6,574 bases of DNA from a virus (lineage: Duplodnaviria > Heunggongvirae > Uroviricota > Caudoviricetes). A program made the translations under genes and the position numbers. Under the pieces are notes generated by a model that was not told the DNA's origin, searched no databases, and worked only from the letters and a program-made list of their open reading frames with translations. Of the stretch, positions 1-6,574 are shown piece after piece (position 1 is the first letter of the stretch; the number at the start of each line of letters is the position of its first letter). Where the stretch lies: positions 1 to 6,574 of IMG/VR virus record IMGVR_UViG_2778261184_000015, one strand, 5' to 3'.

Positions 1-201
1 TTACCCATTGGCGCGGCTTAAGAGCTTATTTTTGAATTCACAATGGTCACGATATAACCATCTTGCTCGTCCGTGGATAACTTTGGCTTTTGGCAGGTCT
101 CCGGACTTAATCCGGTCGTAGATGAAGGTTTTACCAAAGCCAGTATCAGCCATGATGAATTTCAAATCAACCAGTGAATCAGGTTGTAGTTCGTGTTGCA
201 T
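1..201 (-). CDS. Excisionase / AlpA-family helix-turn-helix DNA-binding protein (66 aa)
   Basis: Minus-strand ORF with ATG at 199-201 and GGAG about 10 nt upstream. The pattern L..L..I...TG.....IY..I..G.LP..K...GR.RW fits the phage AlpA/Xis winged-HTH family as I recall it. It sits at the distal (left) end of the leftward operon, where xis sits in lambda. The integrase would lie beyond the window start. Confidence 0.75.
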   Translation of the reverse strand: MQHELQPDSLVDLKFIMADTGFGKTFIYDRIKSGDLPKAKVIHGRARWLYRDHCEFKNKLLSRANG

Positions 202-243
202 GAGTGCTATCTCCGAATAGGGAATCGAACCTGCAAATCAGGC

Positions 244-267
244 AATAAAAAACCGCCATCAGGCGGC
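244..267 (-). terminator. Candidate intrinsic terminator (minus-strand orientation)
   Basis: On the minus-strand RNA: GCCGCC-UGAU-GGCGGU stem-loop (5 G:C pairs plus one G:U) followed by UUUUUAUU. The stop codon of the upstream small ORF (259-261) lies in the loop. On the plus strand the hairpin is not followed by a clean T-tract. Confidence 0.5.
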
Positions 268-441
268 TTGGTGTTCTTTCAGTTCTTCAATTCGAATATT
301 GGTTACGTCTGCATGTGCTATCTGCGCCCATATCATCCAGTGGTCGTAGCAGTCGTTGATGTTCTCTGCTTCGATAACTCTGTTAAATGGCTCTCCATTC
401 CATTCACCTGTAACTCGGAAGTGCATTAGTGATTTCTCCAA
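259..441 (-). CDS. Hypothetical small phage protein (55-60 aa)
   Basis: Minus-strand ORF from the track. The codon at 439-441 is TTG; the first ATG is at 424-426 with GGAG about 9 nt upstream, so the likely product is about 55 aa. No recognisable family. The 3' end overlaps the terminator hairpin. Confidence 0.45.
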   Translation of the reverse strand: MEKSLMHFRVTGEWNGEPFNRVIEAENINDCYDHWMIWAQIAHADVTNIRIEELKEHQAA

Positions 442-461
442 AAGATGCTTGAGTGCGCTTC

Positions 462-773
462 TTATTCGATTCGCACACCTGGTATTTCGCCTTTTGATAT
501 TGCTAAGTCATAAATTTGCGCAGCACTATACCCATCTCGCATCCATGAATCTAATGCGCGAATAGCCTCGTTACGCTTTTTATCTTCTCTCTCATTTTTG
601 ATATCAACGAGGACATCAACGCAATTAAGGCAAATGTGGATTTTGTCCTTACATTCGATCATGGCTGCTTTACCATGATTTACTCCACACAGTGAGCATA
701 AATCTTCAGGGTCTAGCTGGTATTTCTGTAACGTTAGAGGGTTGAATGTTGAACAGACCATAATCATCTCCAT
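462..773 (-). CDS. Hypothetical zinc-ribbon protein (CxxC-x18-CxxC), about 99-103 aa
   Basis: Minus-strand ORF. Cys26-x2-Cys29 and Cys48-x2-Cys51 form a classic four-cysteine zinc-ribbon spacing. The start is probably the third in-frame ATG (759-761), which has GGAG 6 nt upstream; the first ATG at 771-773 has a weak SD. Confidence 0.6.
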   Translation of the reverse strand: MEMIMVCSTFNPLTLQKYQLDPEDLCSLCGVNHGKAAMIECKDKIHICLNCVDVLVDIKNEREDKKRNEAIRALDSWMRDGYSAAQIYDLAISKGEIPGVRIE

Positions 774-798
774 AAAACAAAACTCGCCGTAGCGAGTT
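771..798 (-). terminator. Candidate hairpin/attenuator directly upstream of the zinc-ribbon ORF
   Basis: Perfect 7-bp inverted repeat aactcgc/gcgagtt (781-787 and 792-798) with a 4-nt loop. On the minus-strand RNA the hairpin is followed by UUGUUUUAUG, which runs into the start codon. Weak as a terminator because the U-tract is interrupted. Confidence 0.3.
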
Positions 799-840
799 CA
801 GATAAAAGAAATCCATCAATTGGTTAGGGTTTTTGTAATT

Positions 841-1032
841 CTACGAATTATGTTGTTTTTTAGCTTCAGCTTTCCATTCATCAAAGGCAGTGTCTTTGTT
901 CATGGTGCTGATATTGATCTTACGGTCAATATCATATACACGCCACTCACCGTTAGGCCTCTCTTCGCATCTAACTAAGTATGAATTGCCATTAATATCT
1001 ATGCGTCTGTCTATTTGCATGAACATTTTCAA
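841..1032 (-). CDS. Hypothetical small phage protein (about 61-63 aa)
   Basis: Minus-strand ORF. The first codon (1030-1032) is TTG with GAGGA 8 nt upstream; the first ATG is two codons in (1024-1026). No recognisable family. Confidence 0.5.
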   Translation of the reverse strand: MKMFMQIDRRIDINGNSYLVRCEERPNGEWRVYDIDRKINISTMNKDTAFDEWKAEAKKQHNS

Positions 1033-1189
1033 TTTTCGAATCCTCTTTAATATGCATTTTTTGCTATTTCAGTAGTTTACTATTGATGAGGCGTTATTAT
1101 ACACACTTCATTAATGCAAGCATCTTTATGCTATGCTACTAATTTAGCAATTGATATTCACCTTTATCGCGTATACCTTTACCGGCTTA

Positions 1190-1426
1190 TCACCGAAGTG
1201 GGGGGTGTGTGATTGTTTTCACTTCATATCCTCCATACGGAACATCAATTCTGCGACTGGAGTCGTCGCGCTTCGGATATCCCTTTGTGATAATCAGGCG
1301 GTCATACTCCCGGAACATAATTCGCTTATTCCAATAGTCATTACACAGGCGATACTCTTCCGTTTTCTCTCCTCGAATCATGGCATCGAAGTATTCACCT
1401 TTGACGGCAAGTTGTAGGTTAGCCAC
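1190..1426 (-). CDS. ASCH / DUF3850-like small protein (78 aa)
   Basis: GTG start at 1424-1426 with a strong AGGAGG 6 nt upstream. The N-terminal pattern K-x-E-Y-F-x-A-h-x-x-G-x-K-T-x-E-x-R-x-N-D resembles the DUF3850/ASCH family consensus as I recall it. Overlaps the upstream Lar gene by 8 nt. Confidence 0.65.
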   Translation of the reverse strand: MANLQLAVKGEYFDAMIRGEKTEEYRLCNDYWNKRIMFREYDRLIITKGYPKRDDSSRRIDVPYGGYEVKTITHPPLR

Positions 1427-1721
1427 GGTTAACCTCCTGCGGAGTAGCCTTTACAAGCACTGGTGCAAATCCATCTTCATTAAGGTTATGAATATAGACT
1501 TCTGTTCTCCTGCGCTCTTCAACGTTTAATATTGTTTCTGGATCATAAACCCATACTTTCATTCGACTATTCCATGAAGAAATCGCTTCAGATCTAGTTC
1601 GTTTTTCTGGTCCTTGGGCACCACATTTGCATGACACATAGCGCATTTTCCCTCTGATACTGAATGAGTATCCGATGTTAAGCACAGTGGAACCACAGAA
1701 TGGGCAGCGATATAGATTCAT
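1419..1721 (-). CDS. Lar-family restriction alleviation protein (100 aa, zinc ribbon)
   Basis: The N-terminus CPFCG...(x)...CKCG...W fits the Lar/RalR family pattern (Rac RalR is about 64 aa). This protein carries an extra C-terminal segment of about 40 aa. Its ATG overlaps the upstream stop as ATGA. Confidence 0.7.
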   Translation of the reverse strand: MNLYRCPFCGSTVLNIGYSFSIRGKMRYVSCKCGAQGPEKRTRSEAISSWNSRMKVWVYDPETILNVEERRRTEVYIHNLNEDGFAPVLVKATPQEVNRG

Positions 1722-2359
1722 AAATCATCCACCTTAGGCGCAGCTGAGACAGCAACATTCCAGAACTCAGAAAACATATTGTATGCACCAGATAGATTGG
1801 AAGTGGCATACCCTCCAAGCTCACTTCTAATCTGAACGGCTCTCATCATTTCCGGTGTTAACTCCTTCGGCACCATAACCCAACCATCCGGAGTTACCGG
1901 AGAGTTGCCATCCAGCGCGTTCAACTTGTAAGCCTGGCTTACAAGTTCGGCTTCCAGTTCTGCTATGCGCTTCTCTGATGCTTCAAGTAACGCCTGCTTA
2001 TCGCGTAGCGCTTCTTCCAGTTCAGCAACATGGCACTCACTATCAATAAGGTTGTTCTCTGCGGCTTCCAGCTCAACACGCAGCTTCCCTACCGTTAGCG
2101 CAATATCCTCGTTCTCCTGATCGCGGCGTTTTATGTATTGCTGGTTTCTTTCCCGTTCATCCAGTAGTGCCAAAGCAATCTTTGGATTAAAGGCAGCAAT
2201 AAATTCAGCGTTGTTTTTCAGAACGTGTTGCGCAATGGCCTGACTACTTAGTCGGACCTCATAACCACGTGCGCCACGGTGTGGTTTATATGAGTCCCAG
2301 TCTCCCCACGTTGCCTTCTCTGCCGCCTCACGCAGTGCCTGATAGTCAATCTTGCTCAC
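1718..2359 (-). CDS. Ead/Ea22-like family protein (213 aa)
   Basis: GTG start overlapping the upstream stop (GTGA). The N-terminal motif QALREAAEKATWGDW and the central coiled coil (AELEEAL...AELEAEL) are typical of enterobacterial prophage Ead/Ea22-like proteins. Its position matches lambda ea22. Confidence 0.8.
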   Translation of the reverse strand: MSKIDYQALREAAEKATWGDWDSYKPHRGARGYEVRLSSQAIAQHVLKNNAEFIAAFNPKIALALLDERERNQQYIKRRDQENEDIALTVGKLRVELEAAENNLIDSECHVAELEEALRDKQALLEASEKRIAELEAELVSQAYKLNALDGNSPVTPDGWVMVPKELTPEMMRAVQIRSELGGYATSNLSGAYNMFSEFWNVAVSAAPKVDDL

Positions 2360-2856
2360 TGGTTGCCTCCTTTGCGAAGCTGGTCGGCGAACAAACGTAC
2401 ACTAGACGCTTCACTGCGTAGAAACTTAACGGCATAATCAAAACCACCTCGTTCTGCGTCGTCTGCTCCGTTGTCGAGGTTATCTGCGTACATCTCTACC
2501 CCCTGCGCCCGTACTTCAGCCAGGAAAGCATCGGTGGCTGGGGTTTCCGTGAAGTTGTCCTCCCAACCGTAGTACTCCTGACGACAGAAGTTATTAAATT
2601 CCTTCTCCGACTGTTTAAGCGCCGCATTCTCCGCCGCCAGCGCCGCGCACTTGGCTTCAAGGTTATCAATCGTGATTCCGGAAGAACGACACTCACGAAA
2701 CGCCGTTTCCAGTTTTGATTCAAGTTCACCGAACTTACGCACCAGATATTCAGCGTTTGTTTCGTTAACCTTTAAATCACTTGGGATGCATTTACCTTTC
2801 AGAAAACCATCCATCTCAATTAGTGTCATTTGTTTCATTTCTTCCCACTCCGCCAC
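2356..2856 (-). CDS. Ea22-like family protein, second paralog (160-166 aa)
   Basis: The ORF opens with GTG at 2854-2856, but the ATG at 2836-2838 (Met7) has GGAG/GGGAAG upstream and forms an ATGA overlap with the stop of the upstream small ORF, so 2838 is the more likely start. Coiled-coil middle ([12 protein letters not shown]) and conserved-looking C-terminus ([21 protein letters not shown]). Confidence 0.75.
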
Positions 2857-3017
2857 ATCGCATTCAGATATTTGTTTTGATTCACTGATGGAAAAGAATT
2901 TCTCTTAAGCAATTCATCTCTCGATGGCATTGGCTTTACGCGTTGGCGAATAATCATTTCTGCCGGAAGAATGCCGGGATTGTATGCAAGTCCTCTCATG
3001 GTAAATTCCTCAGTCAT
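2835..3017 (-). CDS. Hypothetical small protein (60 aa); frame shared with track ORF 2835..3152
   Basis: ATG at 3015-3017 gives [60 protein letters not shown]. Its stop forms an ATGA overlap with the Ea22-like ATG at 2838. No clear SD. The longer track version would overlap the 98-aa ORF for about 140 nt and is less plausible. Confidence 0.4.
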
Positions 3018-3306
3018 TACTGATAGCGCCATAGCGTGAGCGGTAATTACGCAGGCGCGGGTCGATATATTCAGGGAAGTGGGTATATGTGGCTTTGCGG
3101 AATGGTCGGATTGATGTCTGGTAAATTCGCTCGCGTTCTTCTTTCTCTGCAAGCCATATACAATGGCGAAATTCCTTTTCCTCTTTCGTTTCCTGCGGTA
3201 GCGACATTATCCGATCGTAGTTTTTTCTGAATTTATCCAGCACCTCCGATACGGAATTGCCGGAACAGCGGCGCGGGTCATCTGCACCATACTGAGGCGC
3301 TGGCAT
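3010..3306 (-). CDS. Hypothetical phage protein (98 aa)
   Basis: ATG at 3304-3306 with AGGAG 6 nt upstream, 13 nt after the SSB stop. Charged, protein-like composition. No family recognised. Confidence 0.65.
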
Positions 3307-3319
3307 GATTTTCTCCTGA

Positions 3320-3835
3320 TTAAATTGCGTGAATAGCGTGACGAGGGAAGGGGAGAGTTACTGGTGCAAAGGGGATATCGTCGTCAAAATCCATAGGTGG
3401 TTCGCTGTGATTTCCCTGCTGCTGAGGTTGCTGTCTTTGTTGCTGACCATTATTTCGCTGAGGTGAAGACTGTTCATTGCCTCCTTGCTTGCCACCAAGC
3501 ATTTGCATGGTTCCACCAACGCCCACGATGACTTCGGTAGTGAACCGATCCTGTCCGCTTTGATCCTGCCATTTTCTTGTCCGCAATTTTCCTTCAAGAT
3601 AAACCTCAGAGCCTTTTCGCAGATATTCGCTGGCAATTTCTGCCAGTTTCCCGCTCATTACCACGCGGTGCCACTCCGTCTGCTCCTTTTGCTCTCCAGT
3701 TTGCTTATCACGCCATTGTTCTGACGTAGCAACTGTAAGGTTTGCAAATGCCGTTCCTGATGGTGAATATCTGATTTCTGGATCATGCCCAAGGCGACCA
3801 ATAATGATCACCTTATTTACGCCTCTGCTTGCCAT
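3320..3835 (-). CDS. ssb: Single-stranded DNA-binding protein (SSB) with 15-aa C-terminal extension
   Basis: The N-terminal OB-fold region is near-identical to E. coli SSB as recalled ([10 protein letters not shown]..., [34 protein letters not shown]). It has a short Gly/Gln-rich linker and the acidic tip MDFDDDIPF. Here the reading frame continues past IPF for 15 codons ([15 protein letters not shown]) before TAA at 3320-3322. The ATG immediately follows the annealase stop (TAAATG). Confidence 0.95.
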
Positions 3836-4543
3836 TTATGCCGCCTGTTTTAGCTCGTTAACTCTGATGTTCATTACCTGAACGCATTTAGCCTGCGCCT
3901 CCTCGTTTCCAGCCATTAATTGCCAGTCATGCTGATAACGCTCGATGAGTTTTTTCTTGTCAGTTTCTGTCGCTGCATAATCGCTGAAGTCTTTCAGGAT
4001 TTGTTCGCAGTCAACCGATGGAGATTTCTGGTTGGTATTTTCTGGTGATGGTTTGTTATCTGATGCTGGGATTGCCCAGCCTGGCAGCGATGGAGGGAGC
4101 CAGTAAAATCCTGTTCCATCCTTGAGTTTTGCCCTGTGCCATCCCTGCTTTTTGTCGAGAGATGTTTGTGCGAAACCTTCCTCAAGGTTATACAGATACC
4201 GACCTATTCCCCATTGAACGGCAGCACGCTTCATTGCACCGGAACGACCACCTTTTACTGCTTCTACCTGCGTGTTTTCAGCGGCATCCCATTTGGTTAC
4301 CCATTCGGAATCAATCTTGATTGATATGCCGCATTCAACTCCGCCGTTGTTGGGAATATCGCGGTATTCATTGCGCCATCCTGCTTTGCCGCAAACATCG
4401 TCCAGGCGTTTCATGATTGCCCGGTTCGTGACATAAGCCAGCACCATAGCCCACACTTTGCCATCGCGTGTTTTACCGCTTTGCTGTATTCGCCATTCGA
4501 TATCTTCAGGGCTGAATGGCTCATCGAATTTGTTCAAATCCAT
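3836..4543 (-). CDS. Rad52-family single-strand annealing protein (Sak-like recombinase, 235 aa)
   Basis: The N-terminal pattern F.PE.IEWR.Q..G......WA..LAY...R.....LD.V.G..GW...Y fits the Rad52/Rad22 N-terminal fold pattern as I recall it from human Rad52 and phage Sak. GAGGTG lies 7 nt upstream of the ATG at 4541-4543. It occupies the position of bet/recT. Confidence 0.85.
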   Translation of the reverse strand: MDLNKFDEPFSPEDIEWRIQQSGKTRDGKVWAMVLAYVTNRAIMKRLDDVCGKAGWRNEYRDIPNNGGVECGISIKIDSEWVTKWDAAENTQVEAVKGGRSGAMKRAAVQWGIGRYLYNLEEGFAQTSLDKKQGWHRAKLKDGTGFYWLPPSLPGWAIPASDNKPSPENTNQKSPSVDCEQILKDFSDYAATETDKKKLIERYQHDWQLMAGNEEAQAKCVQVMNIRVNELKQAA

Positions 4544-4551
4544 AATTCACC

Positions 4552-4722
4552 TCAGAATGGACACGGCCCAAGGAAATAACGCTGATTTAATACTTCGACT
4601 CGGGACAAATTAAGGCATACCCGCATTCCTTCGCGGTCACCATTATGGCGAAACCAGAGAGCTTTCTGCGTGTACATGCGCCTCTGTAACTTGCTCTCCT
4701 TCACTGTGGTTGCAAGTGACAT
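4552..4722 (-). CDS. Small ORF (56 aa), not in the supplied track
   Basis: Hand-translated: MSLATTVKESKLQRRMYTQKALWFRHNGDREGMRVCLNLSRVEVLNQRYFLGPCPF. ATG at 4720-4722 with a strong AAGGAG 6 nt upstream. The stop is 8 nt before the annealase ATG. Overlaps the 52-aa ORF in another frame. Confidence 0.45.
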   Translation of the reverse strand: MSLATTVKESKLQRRMYTQKALWFRHNGDREGMRVCLNLSRVEVLNQRYFLGPCPF

Positions 4723-4801
4723 GAATATCTCCTTCGTTACCGATTAAATCTTTCATCTGACGAATGAATTCTTCGTCTGACCAGTTATCTGTAAAACTCA
4801 T
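4643..4801 (-). CDS. Small acidic ORF (52 aa), not in the supplied track
   Basis: Hand-translated: MSFTDNWSDEEFIRQMKDLIGNEGDIHVTCNHSEGEQVTEAHVHAESSLVSP. Its ATG (4799-4801) overlaps the stop of the Kil-like ORF as ATGA with AGGA upstream (translational coupling). Overlaps the 56-aa ORF by 80 nt in a different frame. Confidence 0.35.
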   Translation of the reverse strand: MSFTDNWSDEEFIRQMKDLIGNEGDIHVTCNHSEGEQVTEAHVHAESSLVSP

Positions 4802-4950
4802 TTCCTGCGATACCACGGAAGGTTGATAGCTGATTTCATCGCTTTATTTGCTTCAAGCCACATTTTGGAATCACCAATAAATCTGGCTATTACTGCTTTG
4901 TTCTGTGCAGCACGAAGCATCTGGTGATTGATGGCTATTTCATTGCGCAT
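4798..4950 (-). CDS. Kil-like small protein (50 aa), candidate host cell-division inhibitor
   Basis: Hand-translated: MRNEIAINHQMLRAAQNKAVIARFIGDSKMWLEANKAMKSAINLPWYRRK. GAGG lies 7 nt upstream. It overlaps the 3' end of cIII by 16 nt, as kil does in lambda. The motif IA.FIGD.KM..EA resembles my recollection of lambda Kil. This is unverified. Confidence 0.5.
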   Translation of the reverse strand: MRNEIAINHQMLRAAQNKAVIARFIGDSKMWLEANKAMKSAINLPWYRRK

Positions 4951-5066
4951 AATAAGACCTCAACTCTTTTCCATCCGTCACGTAATTTACGGGTGATTCG
5001 TTCAAGTAAAGATTCATTTAATTGGAAGGCACCCATGCGAGCGCCTCCCGCGATTGCGTAAATCAT
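4935..5066 (-). CDS. cIII: CIII-like protein (43 aa), FtsH inhibitor / CII stabiliser
   Basis: Hand-translated: MIYAIAGGARMGAFQLNESLLERITRKLRDGWKRVEVLLCAMK. From memory, lambda CIII begins MQYAIAGWPVAGCPSESLLERITRKLRDGWKR, so the N-terminus and the ESLLERITRKLRDGWKR core match. The C-terminus is shorter and different. AAGGA lies 8 nt upstream of the ATG at 5064-5066. Confidence 0.8.
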   Translation of the reverse strand: MIYAIAGGARMGAFQLNESLLERITRKLRDGWKRVEVLLCAMK

Positions 5067-5090
5067 GGGTGGTTCCTTATGTTGGTTTTA

Positions 5091-6059
5091 TTAGTAGGTT
5101 ATTTTTGTTGCGAATACTTCGCCTTTTACGATGGCTGTTATGATATTTTTAGCAACATCTTCTGATGCGCCAACCTTGATAAGGTCAGCAAGTATTTTGT
5201 TATTTACTTCTTTCCGGTGAGCTTTATCCTTTGCTCTACGCTCTTCTTCTTCCTTGATTCTTTTTTCTTCTGCTATTCTGGCTTGCTCTTTTGCTTCAGC
5301 CTCGCGCCGGATTCGTTCAGCCTCCTCCTGTGCTTTTCGGCGTTCTGCTTCAATTGCCGCCTGCTTTTCTCTTTCAGCTCGTTCTGCTGCCTCTTTTGCT
5401 TCGCGCTGTGCTCGTTGCTCGGCTTCAATGCGTTCACGCTCTGCACGTTCCGCTGCGGCCTTAGCTTCTGCTTCTCGCCTTGCTGCTGATTCAATTTCGG
5501 CTTTTGCCTTTGCTTCGGCTTCTGCTCTGGCTTTCTCTTCAGCTTCTCTTTTTAAGCGTTCTTCATGCTCTCGCTTTTCCTGCTCCGCTTTGAGTCTTGC
5601 CTCTTCTCTTTGGCGGTCAAATTCGCGATCCATCAAAATAGCTATTTCATGATCAGACTCAATTTGCTTTGCGAGAGCTTCAGCTGCTGCCTTAGCTTCT
5701 TCTTCGGCTTTAATCCGCGCCTGTTCCTCCTCATAATCAGTAAGAGGCTGGCGAGCCTTGGCTTTCAGTTCATCAAGGCGATCGCGCACTGTCTTGCGGT
5801 TGGCATCAATTAGCTTTGGAATTTCCTTCAGTTCAGCAACAAGGTCTTTGCCAAGACCATCGAGATATGTTTTCGTCTGCGCAACTTTATACGCCAGAGA
5901 AGCAATCTCCTTTCTGCCCTTTGCCGTTGTGATATCAGGCACAAAGGACATAACTTCACGTTCAACCTTTTGGAGAATTTCTTCAATCTGGTCGGCAGAC
6001 TGAAATACAGTCATTGCATTTGCTTTTTCAATAACAACTAAATCTGTTACTTCACTCAT
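5091..6059 (-). CDS. Phage coiled-coil protein with long ER/K-rich helical segment (322 aa); family uncertain, possibly DUF1351-like
   Basis: ATG at 6057-6059 with GGAGG upstream. An N-terminal region of about 100 aa and a C-terminal region of about 40 aa flank roughly 175 residues made almost only of E, A, K and R (EAEAKAKAEIESAARREAEAKAAAERAERE...). The family call is from memory only. Confidence 0.85.
   Translation of the reverse strand: MSEVTDLVVIEKANAMTVFQSADQIEEILQKVEREVMSFVPDITTAKGRKEIASLAYKVAQTKTYLDGLGKDLVAELKEIPKLIDANRKTVRDRLDELKAKARQPLTDYEEEQARIKAEEEAKAAAEALAKQIESDHEIAILMDREFDRQREEARLKAEQEKREHEERLKREAEEKARAEAEAKAKAEIESAARREAEAKAAAERAERERIEAEQRAQREAKEAAERAEREKQAAIEAERRKAQEEAERIRREAEAKEQARIAEEKRIKEEEERRAKDKAHRKEVNNKILADLIKVGASEDVAKNIITAIVKGEVFATKITY
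5220..5750 (-). repeat. Low-complexity coding repeat (GAA/GCA/AAG/CGN-rich codons) encoding the ER/K segment
   Basis: The plus strand here is strongly pyrimidine-biased with short reiterated units (gcttc, ctctt, ttctgc). It generates three overlapping spurious ORFs in the six-frame track. Confidence 0.6.
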
Positions 6060-6070
6060 ATATCCTCCGT

Positions 6071-6099
6071 CAAAAAATTGCCCTCACACTGGAGGGCAA
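6071..6099 (-). terminator. Intrinsic terminator (minus-strand) immediately upstream of the 322-aa gene
   Basis: On the minus-strand RNA: 8-bp stem UUGCCCUC / GAGGGCAA with loop CAGUGU, followed by UUUUUU. The RBS and ATG of the 322-aa gene begin within about 10 nt. The plus strand has no downstream T-tract. Confidence 0.55.
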
Positions 6100-6159
6100 A
6101 GAAGATTTCCAATAATCAGAACAAGTCTGCTCCTGTTTAGTTACGAGCGACATTGCTCC

Positions 6160-6187
6160 GTGTATTCACTCGTTGGAATGAATACAC
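6160..6187. repeat. Perfect 9-bp inverted repeat gtgtattca / tgaatacac with 10-bp spacer
   Basis: Seen directly in the sequence between the two terminator hairpins, in a region with no convincing ORF. Confidence 0.4.
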
Positions 6188-6210
6188 AGTGCAGTGTTTA
6201 TTCTGTTGTT

Positions 6211-6241
6211 TATGCCAAAAATAAAGGCCGACTATGCGGCC
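6211..6241 (-). terminator. Intrinsic terminator (minus-strand) abutting the IS1 end
   Basis: Stem GGCCG / CGGCC (6226-6241) with a 6-nt loop, followed on the minus-strand RNA by UUUAUUUUU (6211-6225). The IS1 left end begins 3 bp away. Confidence 0.5.
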
Positions 6242-6298
6242 TTGGTGATGCTGCCAACTTACTGATTTAGTGTATGATGGTGTTTTTGAGGTGCTCCA

Positions 6299-6574
6299 GT
6301 GGCTTCTGTTTCTATCAGCTGTCCTTCCTGCTCCGCTACTGAAGGCGTGGTGCGTAACGGCAAAAGCACTGCCGGACATCAGCGCTATCTCTGCTCTCAC
6401 TGCCGTAAAACATGGCAACTGCAGTTCACTTACACCGCTTCTCAACCCGGTACGCACCAGAAAATCATTGATATGGCCATGAATGGCGTTGGATGCCGGG
6501 CAACTGCCCGCATTATGGGCGTTGGCCTCAACACGGTTTTACGTCACTTAAAAAACTCAGGCCGCAGTCGGTAA
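6299..6574 (+). CDS. insA: IS1 InsA (91 aa), transposition regulator and N-terminal part of the InsAB' transposase
   Basis: The 91-aa product [89 protein letters not shown] matches IS1 InsA with two substitutions relative to the copy I recall (D to E, I to V). The stop is at 6572-6574. Confidence 0.95.
6548..6556 (+). other. IS1 programmed -1 ribosomal frameshift site (TTAAAAAAC, the A6C slippery motif)
   Basis: The motif sits in the insA frame as L-K-N near the insA 3' end, where the IS1 frameshift that produces InsAB' is known to occur. Confidence 0.7.

Follow-up and report, generated by a model that had tools for sequence, protein, structure and literature searches.

Two overlapping small genes that separate kil from the annealase gene in the early-left operon of an Sf6/P22-like lambdoid prophage

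Introduction

The early genes of phage lambda that concern us here follow the established order cIII-kil-gam-bet, and in E. coli the C-terminal tip of SSB (DDDIPF) serves for the docking of partner proteins. The P22 protein Arf aids Erf recombination but is not essential, and its mechanism is unknown (PMC12315714; PMC9836394). It was defined genetically by its stimulation of Erf-mediated recombination (Poteete et al., 1991, as cited in PMC12315714), and it was proposed as a possible DNA mimic, by way of speculation, in an eLife 2022 paper on RecBCD (PMC9836394). The HkaM protein of phage HK620 was at first annotated as 'arf' and later termed an orphan of unknown function (PMC5928155). In the HK620 system, sak4 together with ssb stimulated recombineering as strongly as the complete module did, which made HkaM dispensable in this oligo recombineering assay, and the last six residues of the HK620 SSB (NDYPPF) were required for Sak4 binding, stimulation and loading (PMC5928155).

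Here we describe two overlapping small ORFs, referred to as ORF-A and ORF-B (A and B), that lie between kil and an annealase gene in a 6,574-nt stretch of viral DNA (Caudoviricetes; IMG/VR record IMGVR_UViG_2778261184_000015, positions 1 to 6,574), which is called the window throughout. Our reading is that A and B are probably true protein-coding genes, both small, in the early-left (PL) operon of a lambdoid prophage that resembles Sf6 and P22.

Results

Gene order and expression signals

All genes of this early-left operon are located on the minus strand of the window. The gene order starts with a 322-aa Glu/Lys/Ala-rich ORF (5091-6059), followed by the upstream operon neighbour cIII (43 aa, 4935-5066; PF02061, E=4e-15) and by kil (50 aa, 4798-4950; PF06301, Lambda_Kil, E=1.7e-20). 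ORF-A (52 aa from its ATG, 4643-4801; phrog_2123, E=2.8e-41) and ORF-B (56 aa, 4552-4722; phrog_1723, E=4.4e-35) come next, and behind them are the genes for a Rad52-type ssDNA-annealing protein (SSAP) labelled 'Erf-like' (235 aa, 3836-4543; PF04098, E=5e-26; phrog_1097, E=6.9e-130), a phage SSB (171 aa, 3320-3835; PF00436, E=2.1e-38) and the anti-RecBCD protein Abc2 (98 aa, 3010-3306; phrog_656, E=2.4e-56). A preliminary description of this DNA had reported a 56-aa and a 52-aa ORF on the same strand overlapping by 80 nt in different frames, and we confirmed both coordinates and frames: the overlap (4643-4722) comprises codons 27-52 and the stop of A as well as codons 1-27 of B, and the frame of B is +1 relative to that of A (4801-4722 = 79). 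Codons 1-26 of A (4724-4801) form its non-overlapping core.

The coupling of the 52-aa ORF to kil had likewise been described correctly, as the TGA stop of kil and the ATG of A overlap as ATGA at 4798-4801. An alternative GTG start at 4816 would extend A to 57 aa and has no Shine-Dalgarno sequence (SD). The ATG of B (4720-4722) is preceded by the SD AAGGAG (4729-4734), which lies inside A codons 23-25 and is separated from the ATG by the 6-nt spacer ATATTC. With an anti-SD duplex energy of -8.8 kcal/mol this SD ranks first among those of cIII, kil, A, B, erf, ssb and abc2, in line with the earlier claim that it is the strongest in the region; stronger ones are found further off, at a 213-aa ORF (1718-2359; -11.6) and at the 322-aa ORF (-9.5). 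The SD of A itself is weak (-4.3), and that of erf (GAGGTGA, 4547-4553) overlaps the TGA stop of B (4552-4554), with the erf ATG 8 nt beyond this stop. It had been left open whether either or both of the small ORFs are expressed; from their signals, the ATGA junction for A and a strong, fully conserved SD for B, both look translated. An RNA element in place of genes was considered and rejected, given that there was no Rfam match in the window and no terminator, and that the RNA fold had a z of -0.77.

Identity, distribution and annotation

A 701-nt segment that spans both ORFs (4400-5100) matches Shigella phage Sf6 and phage IME10 at 98.9% identity. In the Sf6 annotation A is gene 30 and B is gene 29, with the same overlap, and their similarity to HK97 gp42.1 and gp42 is recorded there; A is thus the counterpart of Sf6 gene 30 and of the N-terminal part of HK97 gp42.1. 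The PHROG matches are full-length (A residues 1-52 to phrog_2123, B residues 1-56 to phrog_1723). The notion that these ORFs had gone unrecognised could therefore not be upheld, since both are annotated in Sf6 and HK97 and both belong to PHROG families. They are not new but already catalogued.

Of 5426 complete E. coli genomes, 1113 contain the 250-nt A/B region, and with about a fifth of these genomes carrying ORFs that are already catalogued, the discovery value of the locus is small. Its value for annotation is another matter. PGAP, the NCBI RefSeq annotation pipeline, is inconsistent, calling A but not B in strain E2865 and B but not A in strain CM2; one GenBank record gives B the name 'cIII'; and for the PHROGs label of both A and B, 'recombinase', we could find no experimental basis. 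NCBIfam holds no model for A, B, HkaM or Arf, and a literature search on the accessions, HkaM and gp42.1 returned nothing besides the HK620 Sak4 paper (PMC5928155).

Selection on the two reading frames

A first sample of loci, picked for their resemblance to B, was replaced, since such a choice fixes B in advance. The main sample consisted of 80 IMG/VR loci whose sole criterion was that they encode an identical Kil, and loci picked by similarity to A, with the opposite bias, served as a counter-check. The A-B arrangement was present in 57 of the Kil-selected loci, all of which kept the ATGA junction and AAGGAG with its 6-nt spacer, and the arrangement is in this respect conserved beyond chance. 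Both frames were intact in 53 of the 57, so that the relatives do not carry the stops or frameshifts in both frames that the preliminary description had named as evidence against expression. The other four were a locus with a stop at A codon 8 and an intact B, HK97, and two loci with other indels.

Polymorphism counts were small, and they differed between the two frames. At sites that belong to B only, the 28 distinct sequences with the A/B allele of the window had 5 non-synonymous and 11 synonymous changes vs 209 and 64 possible ones, and at A-only sites, with both allele types pooled, the ratio was 13:4 vs 200:37 possible, corresponding to a dN/dS of ~0.6. Within the overlap, six polymorphisms of the Kil-selected loci were non-synonymous in A and synonymous in B (45 possible), three were non-synonymous in both frames (124 possible) and none was synonymous in A and non-synonymous in B (53 possible). 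The probability of all six one-sided changes falling on B's side is ~0.009, and the A-selected loci, with 3, 1 and 0 changes in the same three classes, pointed in the same direction. Pairwise comparison with an Enterobacter phage was informative because the distance from A start to B stop is exactly 250 nt in both. Here pN and pS were 0.21 and 0.53 for A codons 1-26, 0.46 and 0.36 for the A tail (codons 27-52), 0.38 and 0.69 for B codons 1-26, and 0.16 and 0.98 for B codons 27-56; the Pro, Leu and Gly codons of the B tail vary synonymously. From the polymorphism and the pairwise patterns we conclude that both A and B are coding. Purifying selection acts on the whole of B, the overlap included, and the tail of A over the start of B is an unconstrained read-through to the first stop.

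A doubly constrained, dual-coding overlap was thereby rejected, as only the B frame is under purifying selection in 4643-4722. Selection for a long A tail was rejected by simulation: when the B protein was kept fixed and its codons were recoded synonymously at random, frame A ran on for 25 codons or more without a stop in 39-57% of the trials, so that the length of the tail needs no selective explanation. The overlap is a by-product of mosaic gene packing and not a dual-coding device. It illustrates neatly, on a small scale, how overlaps can originate, from a mosaic joint within a gene that leaves an unconstrained tail over the next start.

ORF-A and its resemblance to Arf

A is acidic (charge -9.1), and its codons 1-18 (MSFTDNWSDEEFIRQMK[D/E]) are common to other downstream modules. 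Behind the identical Kil, one A N-terminus was found joined to three different ones. In 22 of the 80 loci B is missing, and a 35-aa A (MSFTDNWSDEEFIRQMKEMLNQHKEQEKDDDSDSE) precedes a 103-aa ORF and a RecT-like gene; a second configuration is the window's own pair, a 52-aa A and a B with ...QKALW...; the third is another allele pair, a 56-aa A and a B with ...QQALM.... Because the three share the first 17-18 codons, the mosaic joint is placed inside A. In 79 of the 80 loci, Kil is followed by the ATGA junction and the first 18 residues of A; the remaining one has the stop at codon 8. Judging from these comparisons, only the first 18-26 codons of A are conserved, and we infer that its functional core consists of the N-terminal helix together with the acidic tail, of whichever kind, that comes next.

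Every A variant is acidic, like P22 Arf (charge -11.4), and another pipeline labels an A protein (P0042) as 'accessory recombination function protein'. The match of A to the Arf PHROG, phrog_2445, is weak (E=0.011 over 22 residues); three A variants gave E=0.011-0.045, always with residues 5-26 on profile positions 3-24, and hhalign of A against the Arf family returned a probability of 13% (E=0.002, 17 columns). All true Arf relatives carry PF17585, the Pfam family for Arf, and neither A nor eight A variants matched it even at E<=10. We therefore regard A as Arf-like in its position and composition, and not as a demonstrated member of the Arf family. The stop at codon 8 in one contig and the dN/dS of ~0.6 in the core are observations that speak against A being functional.

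ORF-B and the HkaM family

B is basic (charge +5.6). Its AlphaFold2 model (mean pLDDT 86.6) has helices at residues 7-26 and 30-51 and a less ordered tail, and B is accordingly predicted to form a basic helical hairpin with a flexible C-terminal tail, which in the window ends in FLGPCPF. The family reaches well past the E. coli prophages: homologues that belong to phrog_1723 were found in Enterobacter phage vB_Ecl_MII_001 (62% identity), in Erwinia phage vB_EhrS_59 (gp43, 46% identity) and in HK620 and Salmonella SPN9CC (HkaM and an ORF, both ~33% identity), and HkaM itself matches the profile with E=3.6e-33. An 18-member alignment has S10, A21, E43, F50, P55 and F56 invariant, and because of these residues the family signature is a C-terminal F-L-G-x2-5-P-F-COOH, or, more fully, F-[LI]-[GSA]-x2-5-P-F-COOH in proteins of 56-62 aa, which the window's B fits. 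An exhaustive profile (HMM) search of 1.8 billion representative proteins gave only 20 matches for the B family, mostly of 56-60 aa, and these bridge the window type to the HkaM type. By its profile matches, ORF-B is a member of the HK620 HkaM / Sf6 gp29 family (phrog_1723).

Foldseek of B against viral models and the PDB returned generic helical hairpins only, none at E<=0.001, and the B sequence profile hit one designed repeat protein in the PDB (E=0.018). The idea that B is a paralogue of Kil (KAVIARFIGDSKMW vs KALWFRHNGDREGM) was tried and dropped, as hhalign of the B family vs Kil gave a probability of 0.5% (E=0.12) and B had no match to PF06301 (Kil).

The annealase genes that follow B

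In 231 of 233 related loci, all that could be scored, the SSAP start lies 5-10 nt after the B stop. The gene that follows is of the Rad52 type, starting MDLNKFDE..., in 107 loci, of the P22-Erf type, starting MSKEFYAR..., in 116 loci, and of a third type, starting MESKKVYA..., in 3 loci; the fourth type is Sak4. One B, 98% identical, precedes Rad52-type as well as P22-Erf-type genes, and we therefore place a mosaic boundary at the B stop. In divergent loci B is present without A and without an adjacent kil. The last B codons and their surroundings, CCN TTC TGA GG, were identical in 13 of 13 loci examined, one of them HK97-type. Where a P22-type erf follows B, as in the HK97-like loci, the spacer is 10 nt long and contains no SD, which points to termination-reinitiation coupling.

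Discussion

Proposed roles of A and B

We consider it probable that both ORFs are genuine, annotated PL-operon genes with an accessory role, B as a constrained HkaM-type gene and A as an N-terminally conserved gene, and that the two are coupled. Judging from the arrangement of starts and stops, translation probably proceeds as a coupled chain kil-A-B-erf. Ribosomes that end kil would reinitiate at A through the ATGA overlap, B would be initiated from its own strong SD lying inside A, and the stop of B would hand over to the SSAP start that it overlaps or abuts. A cis role of B in annealase translation likely contributes as well.

As to what the proteins do, we tentatively suggest that A and B are accessory factors of the phage single-strand-annealing module, with B working in an SSB-tip-like fashion. 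In position and composition, A would correspond to P22 Arf. B would work via its exposed C-terminal tail, whose Pro-Phe-COOH end resembles that of the partner-docking SSB tips, and may in this way influence how SSB-coated ssDNA is handed over to the annealase or to host enzymes that bind SSB. The tie of B to four unrelated annealases would make sense if these had a pocket for SSB tails in common. The resemblance between B and the SSB tips amounts to two residues plus context and is a lead. A more far-reaching version appears unlikely to us, namely that B/HkaM is a general SSAP factor in the form of a free-standing SSB-tip mimic, with A as a possible partner or antagonist: by analogy, the B tail would dock in the SSB-tail pocket of the annealase or of host SSB-client enzymes such as ExoI, RecJ, RecQ, RecO or PriA, B would gate access to SSB-coated ssDNA, and the acidic, co-translated A could be the partner or antagonist of B. 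Such a mimic would also account for one small gene standing directly before four structurally unrelated annealases. Two observations count against an accessory-factor role of B, the sufficiency of sak4 and ssb in HK620 and the non-acidic character of the B tail.

The family nevertheless provides a modest lead, as 56-aa proteins are strictly tied to the starts of annealase genes of four different folds. To our knowledge, recombineering toolkits made from Erf, Sak4 or Rad52-type annealases usually omit the B gene. If B modulates annealase expression or SSB hand-off, the efficiency of such toolkits could be affected.

Alternative explanations

The accessory role of both proteins has to be weighed against readings in which only one of the two products matters, or in which B matters as a stretch of translated RNA. 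It is conceivable, though we find it doubtful, that only B is functional and that A is a remnant, namely the 5' end that mosaic recombination has left of an Arf-like gene. Any translation of A would then be a side effect of kil coupling and would at most bring ribosomes towards B. The unconstrained tail of a length expected by chance, the population dN/dS of ~0.6 in the core and the nonsense mutation at codon 8 in one contig all agree with such a leftover, as does the tolerance of HK97 and of sporadic variants for fusions that cost A its own C-terminus; moreover, one part of the conserved A sequence, GNEGDIH, is accounted for by the SD and ATG of B within it. A leftover is harder to reconcile with the pN of 0.21 vs pS of 0.53 of codons 1-26 against the Enterobacter phage, with 18 N-terminal residues and an ATGA that persist in 79 of 80 loci ahead of three downstream modules, with the existence of a free-standing 35-aa acidic form, and with the strong acidity, as in P22 Arf, of all variants. 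B, for its part, might matter mainly in cis, as a coupling leader that delivers ribosomes to the annealase start and whose peptide is unimportant. The constant 5-10-nt spacing between B stop and SSAP start across four SSAP types, the TTC TGA GG context shared by 13 of 13 loci examined and the P22-type erf of HK97-like loci with no SD in its 10-nt spacer would all suit a leader, but the amino acids of B are conserved while its codons vary synonymously, with pS saturated and pN at 0.16, six residues are invariant across members of ~30% identity, and the confidently modelled hairpin is not something that a pure leader would need. That B matters mainly in cis is quite unlikely in our judgement.

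Two further readings concern the overlap itself and the position of the pair. In HK97, a frame-shifting indel fuses A to the C-terminal part of B, which yields the 83-aa ORF gp42.1, and HK97 gp42 as annotated is an internal start within this ORF. At least eight further A-B fusions of 81-82 aa are present in the protein database, with differing joints. One might take the in-frame gp42.1 and these variants to mean that the overlap serves programmed +1 ribosomal frameshifting to an A-B fusion protein that has become genomically fixed in HK97, yet the joints fall throughout the overlap, the pattern expected of random indels, and third-frame variants (P0044, P0048, P0049, P0061) are about as frequent as the fusions. 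Given this scatter, and with shifts the opposite way just as common, we regard the fusions as ordinary indels. The sequence has no evident slippery site and no evident shift site next to a stop, its RNA fold does not stand out (z = -0.77), and a modelled natural fusion (P0001) had no confident packing of A on B, with a pLDDT of 55-61 in the A part; programmed frameshifting is accordingly extremely unlikely. The preliminary description had further assigned the pair to the slot that gam fills in lambda. The position does match, and since A is small with a charge of -9, and DNA mimicry has been speculated for Arf in the eLife 2022 RecBCD paper (PMC9836394), A could be pictured as an acidic DNA mimic, and A or B as a protein that, in the manner of Gam, inhibits RecBCD or some other nuclease of the host. 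An identity with Gam did not stand up, however. At E<=1 neither ORF matched any Pfam family, Gam included, and the only PHROG matches were phrog_2123 and phrog_2445 for A and phrog_1723 for B. B is basic, and A, with an unconstrained tail and a core of only ~20 residues, is short for a DNA mimic. Since the anti-RecBCD gene abc2 is located downstream in the same operon, the 'gam slot' is purely positional; HK620 and HK629 likewise have both a B homologue (hkaM) and abc2. A Gam-like inhibitor is thus very unlikely, and the sequences do not support either A or B as a Gam analogue.

Comparison with known systems

The closest described system is Sf6, whose proteins are 96% (A) and 98% (B) identical to those of the window and which has the same 80-nt overlap, the same kil-A-B-erf-ssb order and the same expression signals. 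There is essentially no difference between the window and Sf6 and its relatives, apart from F24 in the window's B, where most relatives have Y. HK620 HkaM shares with B the phrog_1723 family, the size class of 56-62 aa, the basic character and the FL...PF-COOH end, and its gene is coupled by ATGA after kil and lies 8 nt upstream of the annealase gene. In contrast to B, it precedes Sak4, a RecA-like annealase, and not a Rad52-type gene, and there is no overlapping A-like ORF.

P22 Arf (MQHEFSDEEFIALIS...) and A are both small (47 and 52 aa) and strongly acidic, each is encoded directly after kil in the PL operon and ahead of the annealase, and a [FW]SDEEFI motif at residues 4-13 is common to the two. 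However, Arf overlaps erf directly (ATGA) whereas B intervenes in the window, and the C-terminal two-thirds of Arf are unrelated to A. Lambda Gam occupies the same slot between kil and the annealase gene, but it has 138 aa and no sequence similarity to A or B, and the RecBCD-directed role would be supplied in the window by Abc2 (3010-3306). With the SSB tips (DDDIPF, NDYPPF), finally, B has in common the Pro-Phe-COOH end, which is invariable in its family, and a tail that is predicted to be flexible, and it is encoded beside SSAP and SSB genes; unlike SSB, B is not an OB-fold protein, and its tail is preceded by hydrophobic or neutral residues instead of acidic ones.

Results

The pairing of the 52-aa acidic ORF-A (PHROG 2123) with the 56-aa basic ORF-B (PHROG 1723) takes several forms among relatives of the window. 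In HK97 (L004, 1105-1356), both ORFs are fused in frame as gp42.1, and the annotated gp42 is merely an internal start of this longer product. At least eight other A-B fusion proteins of 81-82 aa are present in public data (P0001, P0005, P0017, P0019, P0020, P0023, P0028, and P0066), with joints that differ from one another, and one of them, P0017, is present on 36 contigs. Small in-frame tandem duplications were also observed in both partners (proteins P0032, P0046, and P0014; locus L140), the motif EFIRQMK occurring in two or three tandem copies in ORF-A and YRHNGE being duplicated in ORF-B.

Comparison of the related loci further located a mosaic joint inside ORF-A, past approximately codon 18 (window 4748-4801, minus strand; L094 and L108). 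An identical Kil followed by MSFTDNWSDEEFIRQMK is joined to either of two downstream arrangements, of which one comprises the window-type ORF-A tail, then ORF-B and the annealase, and the other a 35-aa acidic form of ORF-A, with an ORF of 103 aa and then a RecT-like gene downstream. At the downstream end of ORF-B, Rad52-type and Sak4 genes are preceded by GGTGA directly 3' of the TGA stop codon, and P22-type erf follows after a 10-nt spacer, GAACAATCAT, in HK97 and 115 other loci. No Shine-Dalgarno sequence was found in this spacer. The last Phe codon of ORF-B is TTC in all 13 loci examined and TTT in none.

An ORF at 6299-6574 (plus strand), which is open to the window end, looks like IS1 InsA, and a matching E. 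coli record carries an annotated IS1B transposase at this site. IS1 appears to interrupt the prophage early-left region upstream of a 322-aa ORF rich in Glu, Lys, Ala, and Arg (5091-6059, minus strand), which matches Sf6 gene 33. Its PHROG matches belong to function-unknown families, and no Pfam family was matched; RefSeq names the product 'cell envelope biogenesis protein TolA'. Strain E2865 carries an internal stop within this ORF.

Discussion

PHROG 1723 and PHROG 2123 are both labelled 'recombinase', and ORF-B is named 'cIII protein' in phage ECP1 (GenBank KY979108). As neither label is backed by evidence, both are likely propagated mis-annotations.

Binding of partners by SSB normally requires a free terminal Phe carboxylate. 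In the window SSB (3320-3835, minus strand), the canonical DDDIPF tip for partner binding lies within the chain, with 15 further residues C-terminal to it, whereas Sf6-type SSBs terminate in ...DDSDIPF-COOH. The window protein is therefore an odd variant, and the same C-terminal extension is present in at least 24 related loci.

In Erwinia phage vB_EhrS_59 (L005, 1355-1671), the ORF-B homologue gp43 is preceded by the 49-aa ORF gp44 (...DFDFIRALYEMV...), for which no match was found in PHROG. The end of gp44 overlaps gp43 as ATGA, in contrast to the 80-nt overlap in the window, and this pair may represent an arrangement without the read-through tail, the C-terminal codons of ORF-A that run over the start of ORF-B.
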